DNA of 64,000 bases from Escherichia phage EC121: sequence record NC_054909.1, one strand, 5' to 3'. Shown here piece by piece: positions 24,140 to 30,374 of the stretch. The translations under genes were made by a program, and so were the position numbers. Every line of letters begins with the position of its first letter. Position 1 is the first letter of the stretch. The notes beneath the pieces are model-generated. The model was not told where the DNA came from, searched no databases, and saw only the letters and a program-made list of their open reading frames with translations.

Positions 24140-24143
24140 CAAT

Positions 24144-24167
24144 GGGGACCGAAAGGTCCCCATATTT
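24144..24167. terminator. Bidirectional terminator between convergent genes 54 and alt.-3
   Basis: GGGGACC-GAAA-GGTCCCC hairpin followed by a T-run; same core as the hairpin at 9315. Confidence 0.65.
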
Positions 24168-24458
24168 TTATTTACGGAATGAAATGAAAGCAGCAACTGA
24201 AGCAACTAAACTGTCTTCAATATAAACTTCAATTTTTACCGGAGCTTCTGACTCAAATTTACCTGTTACTACACCTTGGAAAATGCTTTCAGTCTGTTCT
24301 GGCTTTGAAAAATTTTCAGAAGGAAAAATTCCGAACTTTTTATCTGTTCCAAAAATTTTGATAAATTCATCATAAACTGCTTCATTAAAAGCGTTATCAG
24401 CAGGAATAACGCCTTCAACTACAAGTTCTTGACCTAAAAAGCGTAAAGAAGATTTCAT
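24168..24458 (-). CDS. Hypothetical protein (T4 alt.-3 position)
   Basis: 96-aa ORF named by synteny. Confidence 0.7.
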   Translation of the reverse strand: MKSSLRFLGQELVVEGVIPADNAFNEAVYDEFIKIFGTDKKFGIFPSENFSKPEQTESIFQGVVTGKFESEAPVKIEVYIEDSLVASVAAFISFRK

Positions 24459-24518: not shown

Positions 24519-26576
24519 CTACATTTTGAACTTTTTAGACATTCCGTTGATGTTAACCAAAGAAGCTAAGATTTGAGAAACTTCGTTTTCCTCTTCTTTT
24601 GATTCTTCTACAAGGAATTGATTAAATCCAGCCATTGGACGAACTTCACCAGTTTCCATTAGATGGTCGCCATCATATACTGATTCTTCTAATTGTTCAG
24701 AAGGAGGAACGATTGTGCCTTCAATTAGATACTTGTTATAAGCAGTTTCTTTCATCATGTACGTGCTTACTTTATTAATCTTCAACAAAATTCCACGCGG
24801 TAGAATAACTTCAGCTTCTGATGGAAATCCTGATAAATGACCTGGAACGATAACTTTAATTCGCTCAGCTCCTTTTATTACCATACCCACGCTAGTTTCA
24901 GCATCTTCATTAGCATATGCGGAATGACTACCCATATGCATTAAATCTTCGGCATCAACAGAACCTTCTCCTTCACCAGAAAATACTGCGCCGGAATCAT
25001 CTAGAGCCATATAGTTTTTACCATGCTCACCGAAGATATTTGGTTTAAGCGATGTTGATACGAAGTTCTTGAAATAGAACATTTTATTTTCAATATTATG
25101 GCGTAAAGTTTTAAAAGTAACTTCTTGTCCACGATAAAGCGTAGTTCCCGGAGGAAGAACTGATCCTTTGGCGAATGCAGAATCCAACGTCTCGATGTGT
25201 TTAATAGCTCGTTCCATGTATTCTTCACGGGTAGAATCTGGTTTACCCAAGAGGAACGAGTTCATTTCAACATATGAATCTGCACAATAATCTTCAATTA
25301 CATCAGACTCAGCCTGAGTCAGTCCTTTTGGAGTTACTTCGGTGCTTGCGTATTCATATGCCTGAGCAGCAGATTCATTAATCAATTTATAAATGCCATT
25401 CATGACAAATTGAATAATAGCTACCTTTTCGTCTGGTGTGGCTTTAGAACCTTTAACTAAATCATTGATAATTTTCTTAATAACATCAAAGCTATTAGAA
25501 ATATTAATGTCAGCGAGATCGCTCAAAATTTTATCGGTTTTATAATCAAAAAATTCTTTATTCTTTAAATATTCTTGAGAACCTTGATGTGTTATATCGC
25601 TCTGCAGTCTGATAGACGGATCACGTAAACGTGCATGGGCCAATGCAATATGATTTCGGAAGCTTTCTAGTTCATAATCGTTAGATTTAAAACGAGAAGC
25701 ACTTCTCATACCACCGATAGCTCCTTTGCCGAAGTTTGAACCAATCTGAATAACGCCAGAGTTCATTGGTCCTTCTGCTTTATATACAGGAACTTTAGAT
25801 TCAAACTCTTGATATTTCTTGGCAGCGAAGCTATCACCCTGAAGTGAAGCATCGACAGTAGAATATTGAGCTTGCGCTGCTAATCGACGACTAATTTTAG
25901 TTTTCTGAATAACAGCTTGATCCGTGCGCTTATCATTTTCTAAAGCAATAGAAGCAGCAACAGCAACAGCTTTAGGAACAGCATTACCTGTTTTAACATC
26001 TACATAAACATCACCAACCTTTGATTCAACTTTTGTGAATAACTCAGTTGAAATAGGAGGTACGCCTGGAATGTCTTCTAAATTGGCATTTTTACGGTAA
26101 ACCATAATATATGCATACTTTTTATCATAATCCCAGATTTCCTTTAAAAGAACATATCGACCTGCTCCTTTAGTACGTACTAAACGATCAGCAATAACTT
26201 GCATTTGACGAGCTGCGCCATTTGTTTTACTTTTTAGTACGCGGAATAGGCATGCGTCAATTTTATACTGTTTCATTGTTTGAAGAGCAGTATCAAAAAC
26301 CGCATTAATGACACCAATTGGATTTCCACCCAAGTTTTTAAGTTTAACTAATGATAGTTTCTCATTAACACCTATCATTACGATATGCATCATTTTATCG
26401 CCTGGCTTAACGTTTTTATTTGTATCACCACCAGAGGTGTATGTACAAAATCTAAATCCAGGAAGCACACTTTCTTCGCCGGCTTGAATAGCAAAAATTT
26501 GAGGTATTTTATGCTTAGGATTTAAGTTAACAACCGGCGCCGAAGCGCCGTCAAATAATTCTGTAATAAGTTCCAT
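24519..26576 (-). CDS. ADP-ribosyltransferase paralog, Alt-like (T4 alt.-2/alt.-1 position)
   Basis: 685-aa ORF; N-terminus MELITELFD shared with Alt; R / STS / E toxin-type ART motifs in the C-terminal half. Confidence 0.8.
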   Translation of the reverse strand: MELITELFDGASAPVVNLNPKHKIPQIFAIQAGEESVLPGFRFCTYTSGGDTNKNVKPGDKMMHIVMIGVNEKLSLVKLKNLGGNPIGVINAVFDTALQTMKQYKIDACLFRVLKSKTNGAARQMQVIADRLVRTKGAGRYVLLKEIWDYDKKYAYIMVYRKNANLEDIPGVPPISTELFTKVESKVGDVYVDVKTGNAVPKAVAVAASIALENDKRTDQAVIQKTKISRRLAAQAQYSTVDASLQGDSFAAKKYQEFESKVPVYKAEGPMNSGVIQIGSNFGKGAIGGMRSASRFKSNDYELESFRNHIALAHARLRDPSIRLQSDITHQGSQEYLKNKEFFDYKTDKILSDLADINISNSFDVIKKIINDLVKGSKATPDEKVAIIQFVMNGIYKLINESAAQAYEYASTEVTPKGLTQAESDVIEDYCADSYVEMNSFLLGKPDSTREEYMERAIKHIETLDSAFAKGSVLPPGTTLYRGQEVTFKTLRHNIENKMFYFKNFVSTSLKPNIFGEHGKNYMALDDSGAVFSGEGEGSVDAEDLMHMGSHSAYANEDAETSVGMVIKGAERIKVIVPGHLSGFPSEAEVILPRGILLKINKVSTYMMKETAYNKYLIEGTIVPPSEQLEESVYDGDHLMETGEVRPMAGFNQFLVEESKEEENEVSQILASLVNINGMSKKFKM

Positions 26577-26579
26577 GAT

Positions 26580-28673
26580 TTATCCTTGAACGAACTTGTA
26601 AGGCATGTTTGTAATATCTATGCAAGACGCAATAATTCCAAGAGATGATTCTACTTTTTGTTTAACATTTGATGAAACAAATGATGCAAAGTCAACTCTG
26701 TCTTCTATTTCAATATCACCTGTCATTGCAACTACTTCACCAGTTTCCATTAGACGGTCACCGTCATAAATTACTGATTCGGTGAGTTCTTCCGTAGTCA
26801 TAACTTCAGCTTGAATGAGTTTTGTATTATTAGATGTTGTTCCGTCATTATTAGAAGCATCAGTTATTTTATTAACTTTGACCATCAATCCGCGTGGTAG
26901 AATAACTTCAGCTTCTGTTGCTATTCCGAGACTTCCTGGATATACAACATTAACTTTATGAGCTCCATCAATTGCCCATCCTATTTGAACTTTAACGTAT
27001 TCAGGATTTTCTTTATACGCTCTTATTTCGTTTGGATTAATAGTTATTCCTTCTTCATTTTTATCAACTGTTAATTCATTACGAGCTTCTGGTTCTAAAA
27101 GACCAATACCAGCATGTGTAATTCCAAAACGTCCAAAAATGATAGGAGTTAAAGAAGTAGATACAAAATTTCTGAAATAGAATACTTTATTTTTAACTAG
27201 TGCTTCGTATATAGGAGCAGTCATACTTTGAGCACGATAAACTGTAATGCCTTCTGGTATACGGTCACCATTTTCAAAAGCTGAATCTAAGTTATTTATA
27301 GCAGATTCAATTTCTTTTTCACTCATTACATCATATCGTTCTGGATTGTAGCGTCCTAAAAGAAGATTATTGATGTCAGTATATCCTGAACCGCAATACT
27401 CTCTAATGCCGCGCTTTTGTGATGGAGTATATTTAGAACCATCACGGGCAATAGTAATATCAATCATTGGACCTGCACCAATTCCAGAAAAGCTATAAAT
27501 CATTCGTTTGAGGAATTTAGTTTTTGCTGCGTTCCAGGAATTTTTAGTTATTTCTTCCCAGACTTCATCTGGCTGTCCTTTACGGGTTTTATTATGTTTA
27601 TCAAGCCAATTATCTTTATATTCTTCAAAGAGTTGATTAACAGCTGCTGCGTATTTCTCCAAACATTTTATTGAAGTAGTTGGTTCATTTTTAATCGCAT
27701 TAAGAATTACATCTTTAATCTTTTCAGAAACTTCATTAACCTCACTTTTTGAAAAGAATTTATAGTCATAATGAAGTTCATCTGCAGTTCCTTCAGCAAT
27801 AATTTTTGCTGCCTTAGTTTTAGAAGCTAATGAATTAATTCCAAGCTTCATTTCTTCTGCTTCGGGAATTAAAGGAGCTGTAGCAGGTTTATTGAAATTA
27901 GCTGCGGTAGATTCATACTTCTGGAATAATTCACTTTCAAATCTAGAAGATTCTAATGATTGACTTTGTGCAATTGCTCTACGGGAAATTTTAACTTTAA
28001 CGATTACAGCTTGGTCAGAACGTTTATCGTTTTCTTGCGCAATAGATGCTGCAATTGCCTCATTTTTAGTTACTTGAGCTCCGGTATCTTTATTGATATA
28101 AACATCACCGACCTTCGATTCAACTTTAGTAAAGAGCTCGGTACTAATTTCTGGAACTCCTGGAATGTCTTCTAGTGATACATTTTTACGATGTATAAGA
28201 ATATATGCATACTTTTTATCGTAATCCCAGAGTTCCTTAAGAAGGACGTATCTGCCACCTGAACGACTACGGATAAGTCTATCAGCAATAACTTGAATTT
28301 GTCGAGCTTGGCCAGCAGTTTTAGACTTAAGAATACGAAGCATACAAGCATCAATTTTATATTGACGCATTGTTTGCATTGCAACAGTAAAAACTGAATT
28401 GATATAATTAATTGGGCTTGGACCAAGACCTTTTAATTTAGCAATTGAACCTTTAGCAGTTAATGTAAAAGGAACAATGTGCATCATTTTGTCGCCCATT
28501 TTTAAATCGCGATTAGTATCACCTCCAGATGTATATGTACATAAACGAAAGCCTGGTTGTTCAATTGCATCATCAACATGAACTGAAAAAATTTGTGGTA
28601 TTTTCTTCTTTGGATTTAAGTTTGTAATCGGAAGAGTAGTATCTTCGTCAAATAATTCTGTAATAAGTTCCAT
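26580..28673 (-). CDS. alt: ADP-ribosyltransferase Alt (virion-packaged, modifies host RNA polymerase)
   Basis: About 697 aa from the second ATG; ART motifs; adjacent to gene 30 as in T4; late promoter upstream. Confidence 0.75.
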   Translation of the reverse strand: MELITELFDEDTTLPITNLNPKKKIPQIFSVHVDDAIEQPGFRLCTYTSGGDTNRDLKMGDKMMHIVPFTLTAKGSIAKLKGLGPSPINYINSVFTVAMQTMRQYKIDACMLRILKSKTAGQARQIQVIADRLIRSRSGGRYVLLKELWDYDKKYAYILIHRKNVSLEDIPGVPEISTELFTKVESKVGDVYINKDTGAQVTKNEAIAASIAQENDKRSDQAVIVKVKISRRAIAQSQSLESSRFESELFQKYESTAANFNKPATAPLIPEAEEMKLGINSLASKTKAAKIIAEGTADELHYDYKFFSKSEVNEVSEKIKDVILNAIKNEPTTSIKCLEKYAAAVNQLFEEYKDNWLDKHNKTRKGQPDEVWEEITKNSWNAAKTKFLKRMIYSFSGIGAGPMIDITIARDGSKYTPSQKRGIREYCGSGYTDINNLLLGRYNPERYDVMSEKEIESAINNLDSAFENGDRIPEGITVYRAQSMTAPIYEALVKNKVFYFRNFVSTSLTPIIFGRFGITHAGIGLLEPEARNELTVDKNEEGITINPNEIRAYKENPEYVKVQIGWAIDGAHKVNVVYPGSLGIATEAEVILPRGLMVKVNKITDASNNDGTTSNNTKLIQAEVMTTEELTESVIYDGDRLMETGEVVAMTGDIEIEDRVDFASFVSSNVKQKVESSLGIIASCIDITNMPYKFVQG

Positions 28674-28696
28674 CATAGCCTCTCTAGTGTTTATTC

Positions 28697-28704
28697 TATT
28701 TATA
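28697..28704 (-). promoter_or_regulatory. Late promoter motif TATAAATA (minus strand) upstream of alt
   Basis: Minus strand reads TATAAATA about 25 nt upstream of the alt start; consistent with late expression of Alt. Confidence 0.5.
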
Positions 28705-28709
28705 AAATT

Positions 28710-28727
28710 AAAGGCCCGAAGGCCTTT
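28710..28727 (-). terminator. Hairpin (UUCG loop on minus RNA) after the small ORF downstream of gene 30
   Basis: AAAGGCC-CGAA-GGCCTTT perfect inverted repeat overlapping the ORF stop. Confidence 0.5.
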
Positions 28728-28914
28728 AGTAATCTAGTGGTAAGAGAGTACGATATATTTCAAACTTTGGTCCTTTTTCATAGGCATCAAATGTTTCTGT
28801 AAATTTATTGTAAGCATATGCATCTACAAATTCGAGAATGACTTGTGATACAGAAGTAGAAACATCTCCACCTTCTTTTTGAGCAATGACAATTGTTTCT
28901 AAGTAAGCTTTCAT
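28726..28914 (-). CDS. Hypothetical 62-aa protein translationally coupled to gene 30
   Basis: ATG overlaps the gene 30 TGA (ATGA); I do not recall a named T4 gene here. Confidence 0.5.
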   Translation of the reverse strand: MKAYLETIVIAQKEGGDVSTSVSQVILEFVDAYAYNKFTETFDAYEKGPKFEIYRTLLPLDY

Positions 28915-30374
28915 AAACCAGTTACCTCATGAAAATCGCCAAATACATCCTCGAATGTATTAGCTTTAGTTTTATCTTCACGTAAACGAATCGCAATCGG
29001 AAGAAATAATTTAACGTAATCAGTGCGGCCATCAGATTTTAACCAACCGTTGCATTCGCACTCTAGAATTTTTCCAATATAATAATTTTGGTTTTCCATA
29101 ATGCGAGTACGGTCAAGTTCATGCGATTTTACACCAGCTTTATCTTTTAAGCCTGAACCAGCATTTACTTTAATTTTTCCACACTCTGACTCAAGAATAA
29201 ATCCACCCGCTTTAGTAGGGTCTTTACGGTGAGGATAAATTCCTACAATTTTTAAATCAACATCAATTACTTCTTTAAATTTATAAAGATTTTTTGAACG
29301 AGCATTTTCCCATAATCCATCGATATTTTTGAGAATAATACCTTCAAGACCTTGGTCAATATACTTTTTGTAAATTACCTTAGCTTCATCTAGGTTATTT
29401 ACTACCTGGTTTTCAATTAAAATTACTTTATCATATCCCGATGTCATTTGTTCTAGTTTAGAAAAACGTACATCATATTTCAAACGAAATGCTGGAAGAC
29501 CATATATTTCTACTAATGGAACATAATCCCAGACCTGAAACTTCATGCATTGAGCTTCTTTTTCTGAAATGGTTCCCTTTAAAGATTTATTAGCGATTCC
29601 ATTAGAAGTAGTACGTGATTCAGCTACTTCGGCGAATTCTTTAGCTTTACTAATTTCAGGATAAGCATCAAAAAGAAAATCTAGGCCTTCTGGTTCCTTT
29701 TCAACTTGCTCATGGTATACCAATTCGCCATCAATTAACACACCTTCTGGATGAATCTGGCGAGCTTCTGCAGTCATTTTGATTAACTCTTCCTTGAGAA
29801 GATCTAATCCTAGATATTCATTACCAGCTCGTGATAAAAGACGAACATCATCTAATTCATCACCTCTGACTTCAGCAAAGCACCGAGCTCCATCAGCTTT
29901 TAACTGGGCAAAAGCTGGAAATTTGATATTCTTATTAATGCCTTTTTCATCATAAGAACTTGCCAGCATTTGAGGTTGTTCAGGAATTAAACCTGGCCAA
30001 ACTTTGTTTGCAATAGATACTGATGCACCACATTCAAGGTCTCGCATCATCACCCGACGCAAAACTTCAACATCATCTTTTTTACCGTCAGCAATATATC
30101 CAGTTAATTCCTCAATTGCCGCATTTCCGGTCAATTTCCGAGTAGCTAACGTGAATTCAATGAAGTCAAGCATATCGGTAAGAGTTAACATTCCAAAACT
30201 CTGGGTAGAAATACCCGGTTTAGGCCATTTCTTGATATAATACTGCAACCCACGAGAATAAGTCAGACGATATACTCGTTTAAGCAATTCATTATCTTTA
30301 TTCTTTTCAAGAATTGCTTGCTTCTGCTTAGTTGAACCAATAGATGCTATTTCGTTCAGAATTTTAAGAATCAT
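28911..30374 (-). CDS. 30: ATP-dependent DNA ligase
   Basis: 487-aa ORF matching T4 DNA ligase, with a lysine adenylation motif. Confidence 0.95.
   Translation of the reverse strand: MILKILNEIASIGSTKQKQAILEKNKDNELLKRVYRLTYSRGLQYYIKKWPKPGISTQSFGMLTLTDMLDFIEFTLATRKLTGNAAIEELTGYIADGKKDDVEVLRRVMMRDLECGASVSIANKVWPGLIPEQPQMLASSYDEKGINKNIKFPAFAQLKADGARCFAEVRGDELDDVRLLSRAGNEYLGLDLLKEELIKMTAEARQIHPEGVLIDGELVYHEQVEKEPEGLDFLFDAYPEISKAKEFAEVAESRTTSNGIANKSLKGTISEKEAQCMKFQVWDYVPLVEIYGLPAFRLKYDVRFSKLEQMTSGYDKVILIENQVVNNLDEAKVIYKKYIDQGLEGIILKNIDGLWENARSKNLYKFKEVIDVDLKIVGIYPHRKDPTKAGGFILESECGKIKVNAGSGLKDKAGVKSHELDRTRIMENQNYYIGKILECECNGWLKSDGRTDYVKLFLPIAIRLREDKTKANTFEDVFGDFHEVTGL

Follow-up and report, generated by a model that had tools for sequence, protein, structure and literature searches.

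Tandem Alt-type ADP-ribosyltransferase genes in the Tequatrovirus EC121: a probable late operon for two putative packaged enzymes, the second of which is lost in T4

Two long open reading frames (ORFs) resembling the alt gene of phage T4 lie in tandem on the minus strand of Escherichia phage EC121, between positions 24519 and 28704 of the 64,000-nucleotide stretch analysed here (NC_054909.1, hereafter the window), and they raise the question of what a phage of this type would do with two Alt proteins. Alt is the textbook case of an enzyme that a phage injects together with its DNA and that reprograms the host, and the knowledge about it comes almost entirely from T4, whose Alt (NP_049811) is a head-packaged NAD+:arginine ADP-ribosyltransferase (ART). 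The T4 virion contains about 40 copies of Alt. According to the cited literature, the targets of T4 Alt include the RNA polymerase alpha subunit of the host. In this analysis, the ORF adjoining gene 30 was named AltA and the other one AltB. We found that AltA and AltB are two full-length Alt-type ART paralogues, with predicted catalytic motifs that are intact in both. The reading that we favour, with a probability of about three in four, is that the two genes form a probable late operon and that both products would be made late, packaged, trimmed by the prohead protease gp21 and injected as ARTs with different substrate sets.

AltA (26580-28676, minus strand) is 698 amino acids long from the ATG at 28676 and 697 amino acids long from the ATG at 28673, its start being ATGATG. 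The 697 amino acid form, from which residues are numbered here, is more likely because the Shine-Dalgarno sequence GAGAGG (28679-28684, minus strand), whose distance is 2 nt to the first ATG and 5 nt to the second, is better spaced for the latter and because this start agrees with the T4 annotation. AltB (24519-26576, minus strand), which corresponds to the protein called "Alt2" in the annotation of phage Bas37, is 685 amino acids long. Both proteins open with M(M)ELITELFD and neither ORF is interrupted by an internal stop. The two proteins share 41% identity over their full length (BLASTP, E = 5e-162). Both scored above the gathering cut-off of 23.4 bits of the Pfam family PF03496 (ADPrib_exo_Tox), with 72.7 bits for AltB (E = 3e-20) and 129.2 bits for AltA (E = 2e-37). 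In the same way, both matched PHROG 802, "Alt-like RNA polymerase ADP-ribosyltransferase", over practically its whole length, residues 1-685 of AltB aligning with positions 2-674 of the 674 of the profile (E = 8e-256) and residues 1-697 of AltA with positions 1-674 (E = 9e-273). A search of NCBIfam with four proteins returned no model for any of them.

The catalytic motifs of AltB are TLYRGQ, FVSTSL and SEAEVILPRG, which place the arginine at R482 (25131-25133, minus strand), the Ser-Thr-Ser triad at S507-T-S509 (25050-25058) and the ExE motif at E587-A-E589 (24810-24818). In AltA, the motifs TVYRAQ, FVSTSL and TEAEVILPRG correspond to R480 (27234-27236, minus strand), S505-T-S507 (27153-27161) and E587-A-E589 (26907-26915). 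The Arg, STS and ExE columns are invariant among 17 aligned members of the family, including T4 Alt. The initial annotation of this DNA had described two full-length tandem ART paralogues of 685 and 697/698 amino acids, both starting with MELITELFD and both carrying the TLYRGQ...FVSTSL or TVYRAQ...FVSTSL motifs followed by a glutamate, and these features were all recovered here. The loss of the catalytic Arg or Glu and a frameshift, which it had named as outcomes speaking against this description, were looked for by alignment and found neither in AltA nor in AltB.

The sequence search of AltB against solved structures gave no match. The toxin ARTs were reached by the family profile and not by the single AltB sequence, so that there was no solved Alt structure for comparison. 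With the profile built from the 17-member alignment, the catalytic columns line up with the YRG and QxE/ExE (QYE/EYE) motifs of solved C3-type and BECa toxins. AltB was modelled with AlphaFold from 17 homologues (mean pLDDT 74.8), and the model shows four parts: an alpha/beta domain (residues ~10-240), a helical region (~250-415), an ART domain (~420-625) and a tail of low confidence (~630-685). In Foldseek, the predicted ART domain matched the toxins Vis, C3, CDTa and VIP2 with a probability of 1.0 and an E of about 3e-6 to 1e-4, the TM-score of the AltB model on single-domain toxin targets being 0.56-0.67. The Alt proteins thus have in common with the C3/VIP2/iota-type toxins (Vis 4XZJ, C3bot 1GZF, CDTa 2WN7, VIP2 1QS1) the predicted catalytic fold and the R-S-E set, at a sequence identity of 14-21%; among toxin ARTs, the ExE form is that of the arginine-specific members. 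Unlike the toxins, the Alt proteins have an N-terminal domain specific to phages (~240 residues), a helical region (~170 residues) and termini that can be cleaved, and the delivery of Alt is by ejection from the phage head, whereas the toxins are secreted or pass through a binary-toxin pore.

The identity between AltA and AltB was then computed along the proteins in sliding windows of 40 residues. Residues 1-240 are the part best conserved between the two paralogues, with 52-82% identity. The identity falls to 8-20% over residues ~240-430, in line with the differing central regions reported by the initial annotation, and rises to 40-50% in the ART core before decreasing again in the loops between STS and ExE. 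T4 Alt has the same four-part architecture as AltB with ~42% overall identity, and shares with AltA the R/STS/ExE residues and the ITE and LTE motifs recognised by gp21. AltA is its positional orthologue, with the same terminator and late promoter upstream. The proposal that the copy adjoining gene 30 corresponds to the virion-packaged Alt holds: residues 1-240 of AltA are 100% identical to those of T4 Alt. Beyond this point the identity between AltA and T4 Alt is 12-38% over residues 260-400 and 55-68% over residues 400-520, and the tail is again ~90% identical. AltA is thus a different allele, with residues ~250-600 being 12-68% identical to T4 Alt; AltB is further off, at 8-20% in the middle and 40-50% in the ART core. 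By sequence comparison, the alt alleles are mosaics in which a variable cassette lies between a constant N-terminal domain and a constant tail, and the pattern in AltA looks as if a specificity cassette had been exchanged while its flanks stayed constant. These alleles combine freely, phage PYPS2T pairing a 684 amino acid Alt, near the 682 amino acids of T4, with AltB. In the window, the divergent stretch of AltA covers the helical region and the ART domain (residues ~250-600) and is located at 26850-27930 on the minus strand.

In T4, gp21 cuts Alt at ITE-6 and LTE-619 and 63 C-terminal residues are removed, as found by mass spectrometry (PMC5694885; also PMC9026906). At the aligned sites, AltA has ITE-6 (28656-28664, minus strand) and LTE-632 (26778-26786) and AltB has ITE-6 (26559-26567, minus strand) and LEE-631 (24684-24692), all of which obey the (L/I)-x-E rule. 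The predicted mature masses are ~70.1 kDa for AltA and ~69.1 kDa for AltB. That AltB would be packaged like Alt is argued mainly from the two processing motifs and the N-terminal domain, which are conserved in it. This domain has no clear relative among solved structures, and among predicted viral structures it matched Alt homologues. An exhaustive sequence search with it gave 69 representative clusters, nearly all of 600-712 amino acids with the Alt architecture, and PF03496 was present in 8 of the 10 clusters that were scanned. At the level of sequence, the N-terminal domain is not a widely reused module. The domain is strongly basic, with a net charge of +10 to +13 (AltB residues 1-245, 25842-26576, minus strand). 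Weaker structural matches (TM-score on query 0.4-0.5) were seen with large myovirus proteins whose C-termini carry zeta toxin, deaminase or ParB/Srx domains; these models hint at a shared and more general head-delivery module, a signal too weak to build on.

An alternative is that AltB is an active ART made late and not packaged, which would act in the producing cell on host or phage proteins. The other T4 ARTs, ModA and ModB, work without packaging (PMC5512222), the literature searches yielded no virion proteomics of Alt2, and the classical T4 work could not see AltB, the gene being missing in T4. We consider this alternative unlikely, at roughly one chance against several, because AltB has kept the whole N-terminal domain, MELITE and an L-x-E at the mapped cleavage position, and because the domain is almost confined to proteins of Alt architecture; such strong constraint is hard to explain if the domain, the propeptide and the L-x-E have no role.

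Another motif of the C-terminal region, YDGDxLMETGE, is invariant across the family (AltB residues 634-644, 24642-24674, minus strand; AltA residues 636-646). It falls in the C-terminal propeptide, which is removed by gp21 in T4 Alt, in a region of low predicted order. Candidate roles are targeting, tethering or holding the enzyme inactive before cleavage. We had considered it as the C-terminal gp21 site and dropped this idea, the published T4 site LTE-619 being ten residues upstream.

The expression signals were examined next to the coding sequences. The T4-type late promoter motif TATAAATA is located at 28697-28704 on the minus strand, 20 nt 5' of the first AltA ATG and directly after an intrinsic-terminator-like hairpin, AAAGGCC-TTCG-GGCCTTT with a T-run (28709-28728, minus strand), which ends the gene 30/alt.1 unit. 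Both elements are also found 5' of T4 alt, a late gene according to time-resolved transcriptome and proteome data (PMC9697503), and TATAAATA is kept in T4, Bas37, RB27, TP7 and PYPS2T, where its distance from the ATG is -31 to -36. The initial annotation was right about the motif before the copy adjoining gene 30, but it had also given the downstream copy a late promoter of its own; the promoter precedes the upstream gene, AltA, and no late-promoter motif was found for AltB within 700 nt. The AltA stop codon TAA (26580-26582) and the AltB ATG (26574-26576) are separated by 3 nt, and the Shine-Dalgarno sequence of AltB, AAGGA (26583-26587, minus strand), lies within the last codons of AltA. On the minus strand, there is no terminator-like site between AltA and AltB or before 24163-24142, this being the first one 3' of the alt late promoter. 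AltB is probably co-transcribed with AltA from the late promoter at 28697-28704 (minus strand), as a late operon, because its start lies 3 nt past the AltA stop and a ribosome-binding site is the only signal of its own. A second exact minus-strand TATAAATA is present inside AltA at 27293-27300, 724 nt 5' of the AltB start. This internal copy is retained by 6/6 phages with near-identical AltA-type alleles and absent from T4-type alleles. We considered it as a late promoter proper to AltB, and its conservation, limited to near-identical alleles, decides nothing.

In the proposed mechanism, AltA and AltB would be synthesised late from the operon with the promoter at 28697-28704. The two proteins share one layout: a six-residue propeptide, MELITE, ending in the gp21 motif I-T-E; a basic alpha/beta N-terminal domain of ~235 residues followed by a helical middle that is unrelated between the paralogues; a predicted C3/VIP2-type ART domain with the Arg, Ser-Thr-Ser and Glu-x-Glu typical of arginine-specific enzymes; and an acidic tail at the C-terminus, which comes after an L-x-E aligned with the mapped cleavage site of T4 Alt. 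Both would enter the prohead core via the shared N-terminal part, and gp21 would trim both ends of each protein. After ejection with the DNA into the next host, AltA and AltB would modify host proteins by ADP-ribosylation as infection begins, and their divergent middle and ART loops would give them different substrate sets.

Whether AltB is under constraint was addressed with seven phages. AltB is intact, with exactly 2,058 nt, in 7/7 of them. Its pairwise ratio of non-synonymous to synonymous substitutions (dN/dS) is 0.016-0.047 at dS 0.06-0.28, which is as low as or lower than that of AltA (0.02-0.08). Because of this low pairwise dN/dS, strong purifying selection is judged to act along the whole length of AltB.

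Functional hints come from Bas37 and from T4 alleles. On cells carrying Mokosh type I, the plaquing of a T4 alt mutant was partly restored by ectopic T4 Alt and not by Bas37 Alt (preprint 10.1101/2025.11.20.689424), and this preprint indicates that alt alleles differ in the host defence that they overcome. Bas37 Alt, which is 3 residues away from AltA, and T4 Alt differ almost only in residues ~250-600. Alt specificity therefore appears, from the comparison of these alleles, to reside in the variable cassette, since the two proteins are not interchangeable and differ almost only there. Alt2 is unmentioned in the main text of this preprint. In its supplement, transposon insertions in Bas37 Alt2 were found at 116/164 TA sites with a mean count of 44.5 (class "Intermediate"), compared to 164/179 TA sites and a mean count of 203.6 for Alt ("Non-essential"), and the neighbouring dispensable genes have mean counts of ~170-200. 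In the three conditional HIDEN-SEQ sheets covered by the analysis, of six in all, the Alt2 counts were unchanged. These data suggest that the disruption of Alt2 carries a general fitness cost in E. coli K-12. A distinct target for AltB is plausible, with indirect backing from the divergent cassette, the purifying selection, the non-interchangeable alt alleles and the fitness cost of insertions.

AltB might also be a redundant spare Alt with the same targets, kept for dosage or for recombination between alt alleles. It has the architecture and catalytic motifs of AltA, T4 lost the gene without obvious harm, and the mosaic alt alleles suggest that cassettes are exchanged. Such a role is slightly less probable still than that of an unpackaged enzyme. 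The middle regions of the paralogues are only 8-20% identical and the STS-ExE loops differ; a dN/dS of 0.02-0.05 over the whole length in many lineages is not expected for a spare copy; the insertions in Bas37 Alt2 have a lower baseline count than those in Alt although Alt is intact in these mutants; and T4 Alt and Bas37 Alt are not interchangeable against Mokosh type I.

What became of the second gene in T4 was read from the DNA alignment. In T4, alt (682 amino acids) is followed by the small ORFs alt.-1 and alt.-2 (NP_049810 and NP_049809), which correspond to the 5' end of the AltB gene with ~97% DNA identity to AltB codons 1-116. Two lesions were identified: the loss of 1 nt from an A-run near codon 55, which causes a frameshift, and a 1,699-bp deletion bounded by the 9-bp direct repeat ACTTTTTAG. 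In the window, the copies of ACTTTTTAG that mark the endpoints of the T4 deletion are at 26229-26237 and 24530-24538 (plus strand), and the 1,699 bp between them are absent from T4. According to the RefSeq note, alt.-1/alt.-2 stem from an old duplication that took in the first part of gene alt. Contrary to this note, the alignment indicates that alt.-1/alt.-2 result from the recent truncation of a full-length paralogue, the loss being taken as recent because the remnant is near-identical to AltB. With an 81-nt query spanning the T4 junction, 90/469 matching records covered at least 80% of the query, the others matching one half only.

The prevalence of the undeleted form was estimated with a 4.85-kb query of the locus against phage records. 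The query matched 541 records, 343 of which covered at least 80% of its length, mostly at 95-99% identity. They are mostly Escherichia, Shigella and Yersinia Tequatroviruses, and in many of them two Alt-like genes are annotated. Alt homologues as such occur in roughly 1,200 phage records. The AltB-specific part (residues 240-685) was found as an at least 95% identical protein in 400 records, RB27 among them, and the AltA-specific middle part was at least 95% identical in 315 records. The second Alt paralogue is present in about four fifths of the related phages that have the region, and the junction counts together with the 400 records carrying the AltB-specific part indicate that intact AltB is the majority state and T4 the exception. 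The reference phage for Alt biology lacks a second paralogue that is strongly conserved. In KarlGJung (Bas37 of the BASEL collection; MZ501089), the same two genes are found in the same order, as bas37_0033 "ADP-ribosyltransferase Alt" and bas37_0032 "ADP-ribosyltransferase Alt2". The region is 98.0% identical in DNA to that of the window, AltA differing by 3 residues and AltB by 2. There is essentially no difference between the two, the window coming from a further isolate of this type of phage. Duplications of alt were already reported by Nolan et al. (2006), full-length in phage 44RR and partial in T4 as alt.-1/alt.-2 (PMC1524935). The tandem Alt/Alt2 pair, present in about 400 GenBank phages, is known, annotated and ordinary in the close relatives of T4, and the interest given to the pair as such by the initial annotation is not borne out. 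The T4 remnant alt.-1/alt.-2, frameshifted and deleted, could suggest that AltA or AltB is decaying into a pseudogene or arose from faulty assembly. This is refuted for the window by two uninterrupted full-length ORFs with all catalytic residues, by the constant 2,058 nt of AltB in 7/7 phages and by an AltB-specific part at least 95% identical in 400 records.

Several points weigh against two packaged, injected enzymes made from one late operon. AltB is dispensable in at least some settings, because T4 and ~90 other records have lost it and these phages are still viable. We infer the presence of AltB in the virion, its cleavage and its enzymatic activity from the sequence, and the literature searches on the virion proteomics of T4-like phages gave no proteomic report on Alt2. 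The case for co-transcription is made from the spacing of AltA and AltB and from the lack of promoter or terminator motifs between the genes, and the internal TATAAATA at 27293-27300 could either give a separate late transcript for AltB or be there by chance. The low insertion counts in Alt2 could reflect other causes, for example harmful truncated products.

A more specific proposal can be made tentatively, at somewhat less than even odds. Alt2 would be a second packaged and injected ART with a host target of its own, maybe a defence or takeover factor left alone by Alt, and would be an enzyme that has gone unstudied since T4 lost the gene by a recent 1.7-kb deletion, and the cassette would be an exchangeable specificity module. 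If this is true, T-even phages could carry two different injected effectors at once. The literature searches on Alt2 as a phage ADP-ribosyltransferase gave no functional study of the second paralogue, and the loss of AltB in T4 probably explains why Alt2 is unstudied. The worthwhile questions that remain are the target of Alt2 and its packaging.

The window is that of a Tequatrovirus, and the locus is its alt region in the common, undeleted form. The minus strand carries, in order of position, alt.-3, AltB, AltA, alt.1 and gene 30, and the plus strand carries genes 29, 48 and 54; the gene order between gene 30/alt.1 and alt.-3/gene 54, on the strand of gene 30, matches the RefSeq annotation of T4. 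The DNA ligase gene 30 is located at 28911-30374 (minus strand) and alt.1, of 62 amino acids, at 28726-28914 (minus strand), the ATG of alt.1 and the stop codon of gene 30 sharing 4 nt (28911-28914). The alt.1 product matched PF24647 of Pfam, "Phage blade protein", with E = 2e-29. On the other side, a bidirectional terminator hairpin (24142-24163, both strands) lies between alt.-3 and gene 54. The alt.-3 gene (24168-24458, minus strand) codes for a product of 96 amino acids with the Pfam domain DUF5498. Right after the AltB stop, alt.-3 has a T4-early-like promoter, GTTTACA (24519-24513) and TATAGT (24495-24490) with a 17-nt spacer, after which comes a ribosome-binding site, GAGGA. In T4, extending Alt.-3 at its C-terminus gives escape from CmdTAC, a defence system (PMC11618068), and in the HIDEN-SEQ supplement the insertions in the alt.-3 orthologue of Bas37 are reduced on E. 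coli CFT073 (log2 -2.70, q 0.02).

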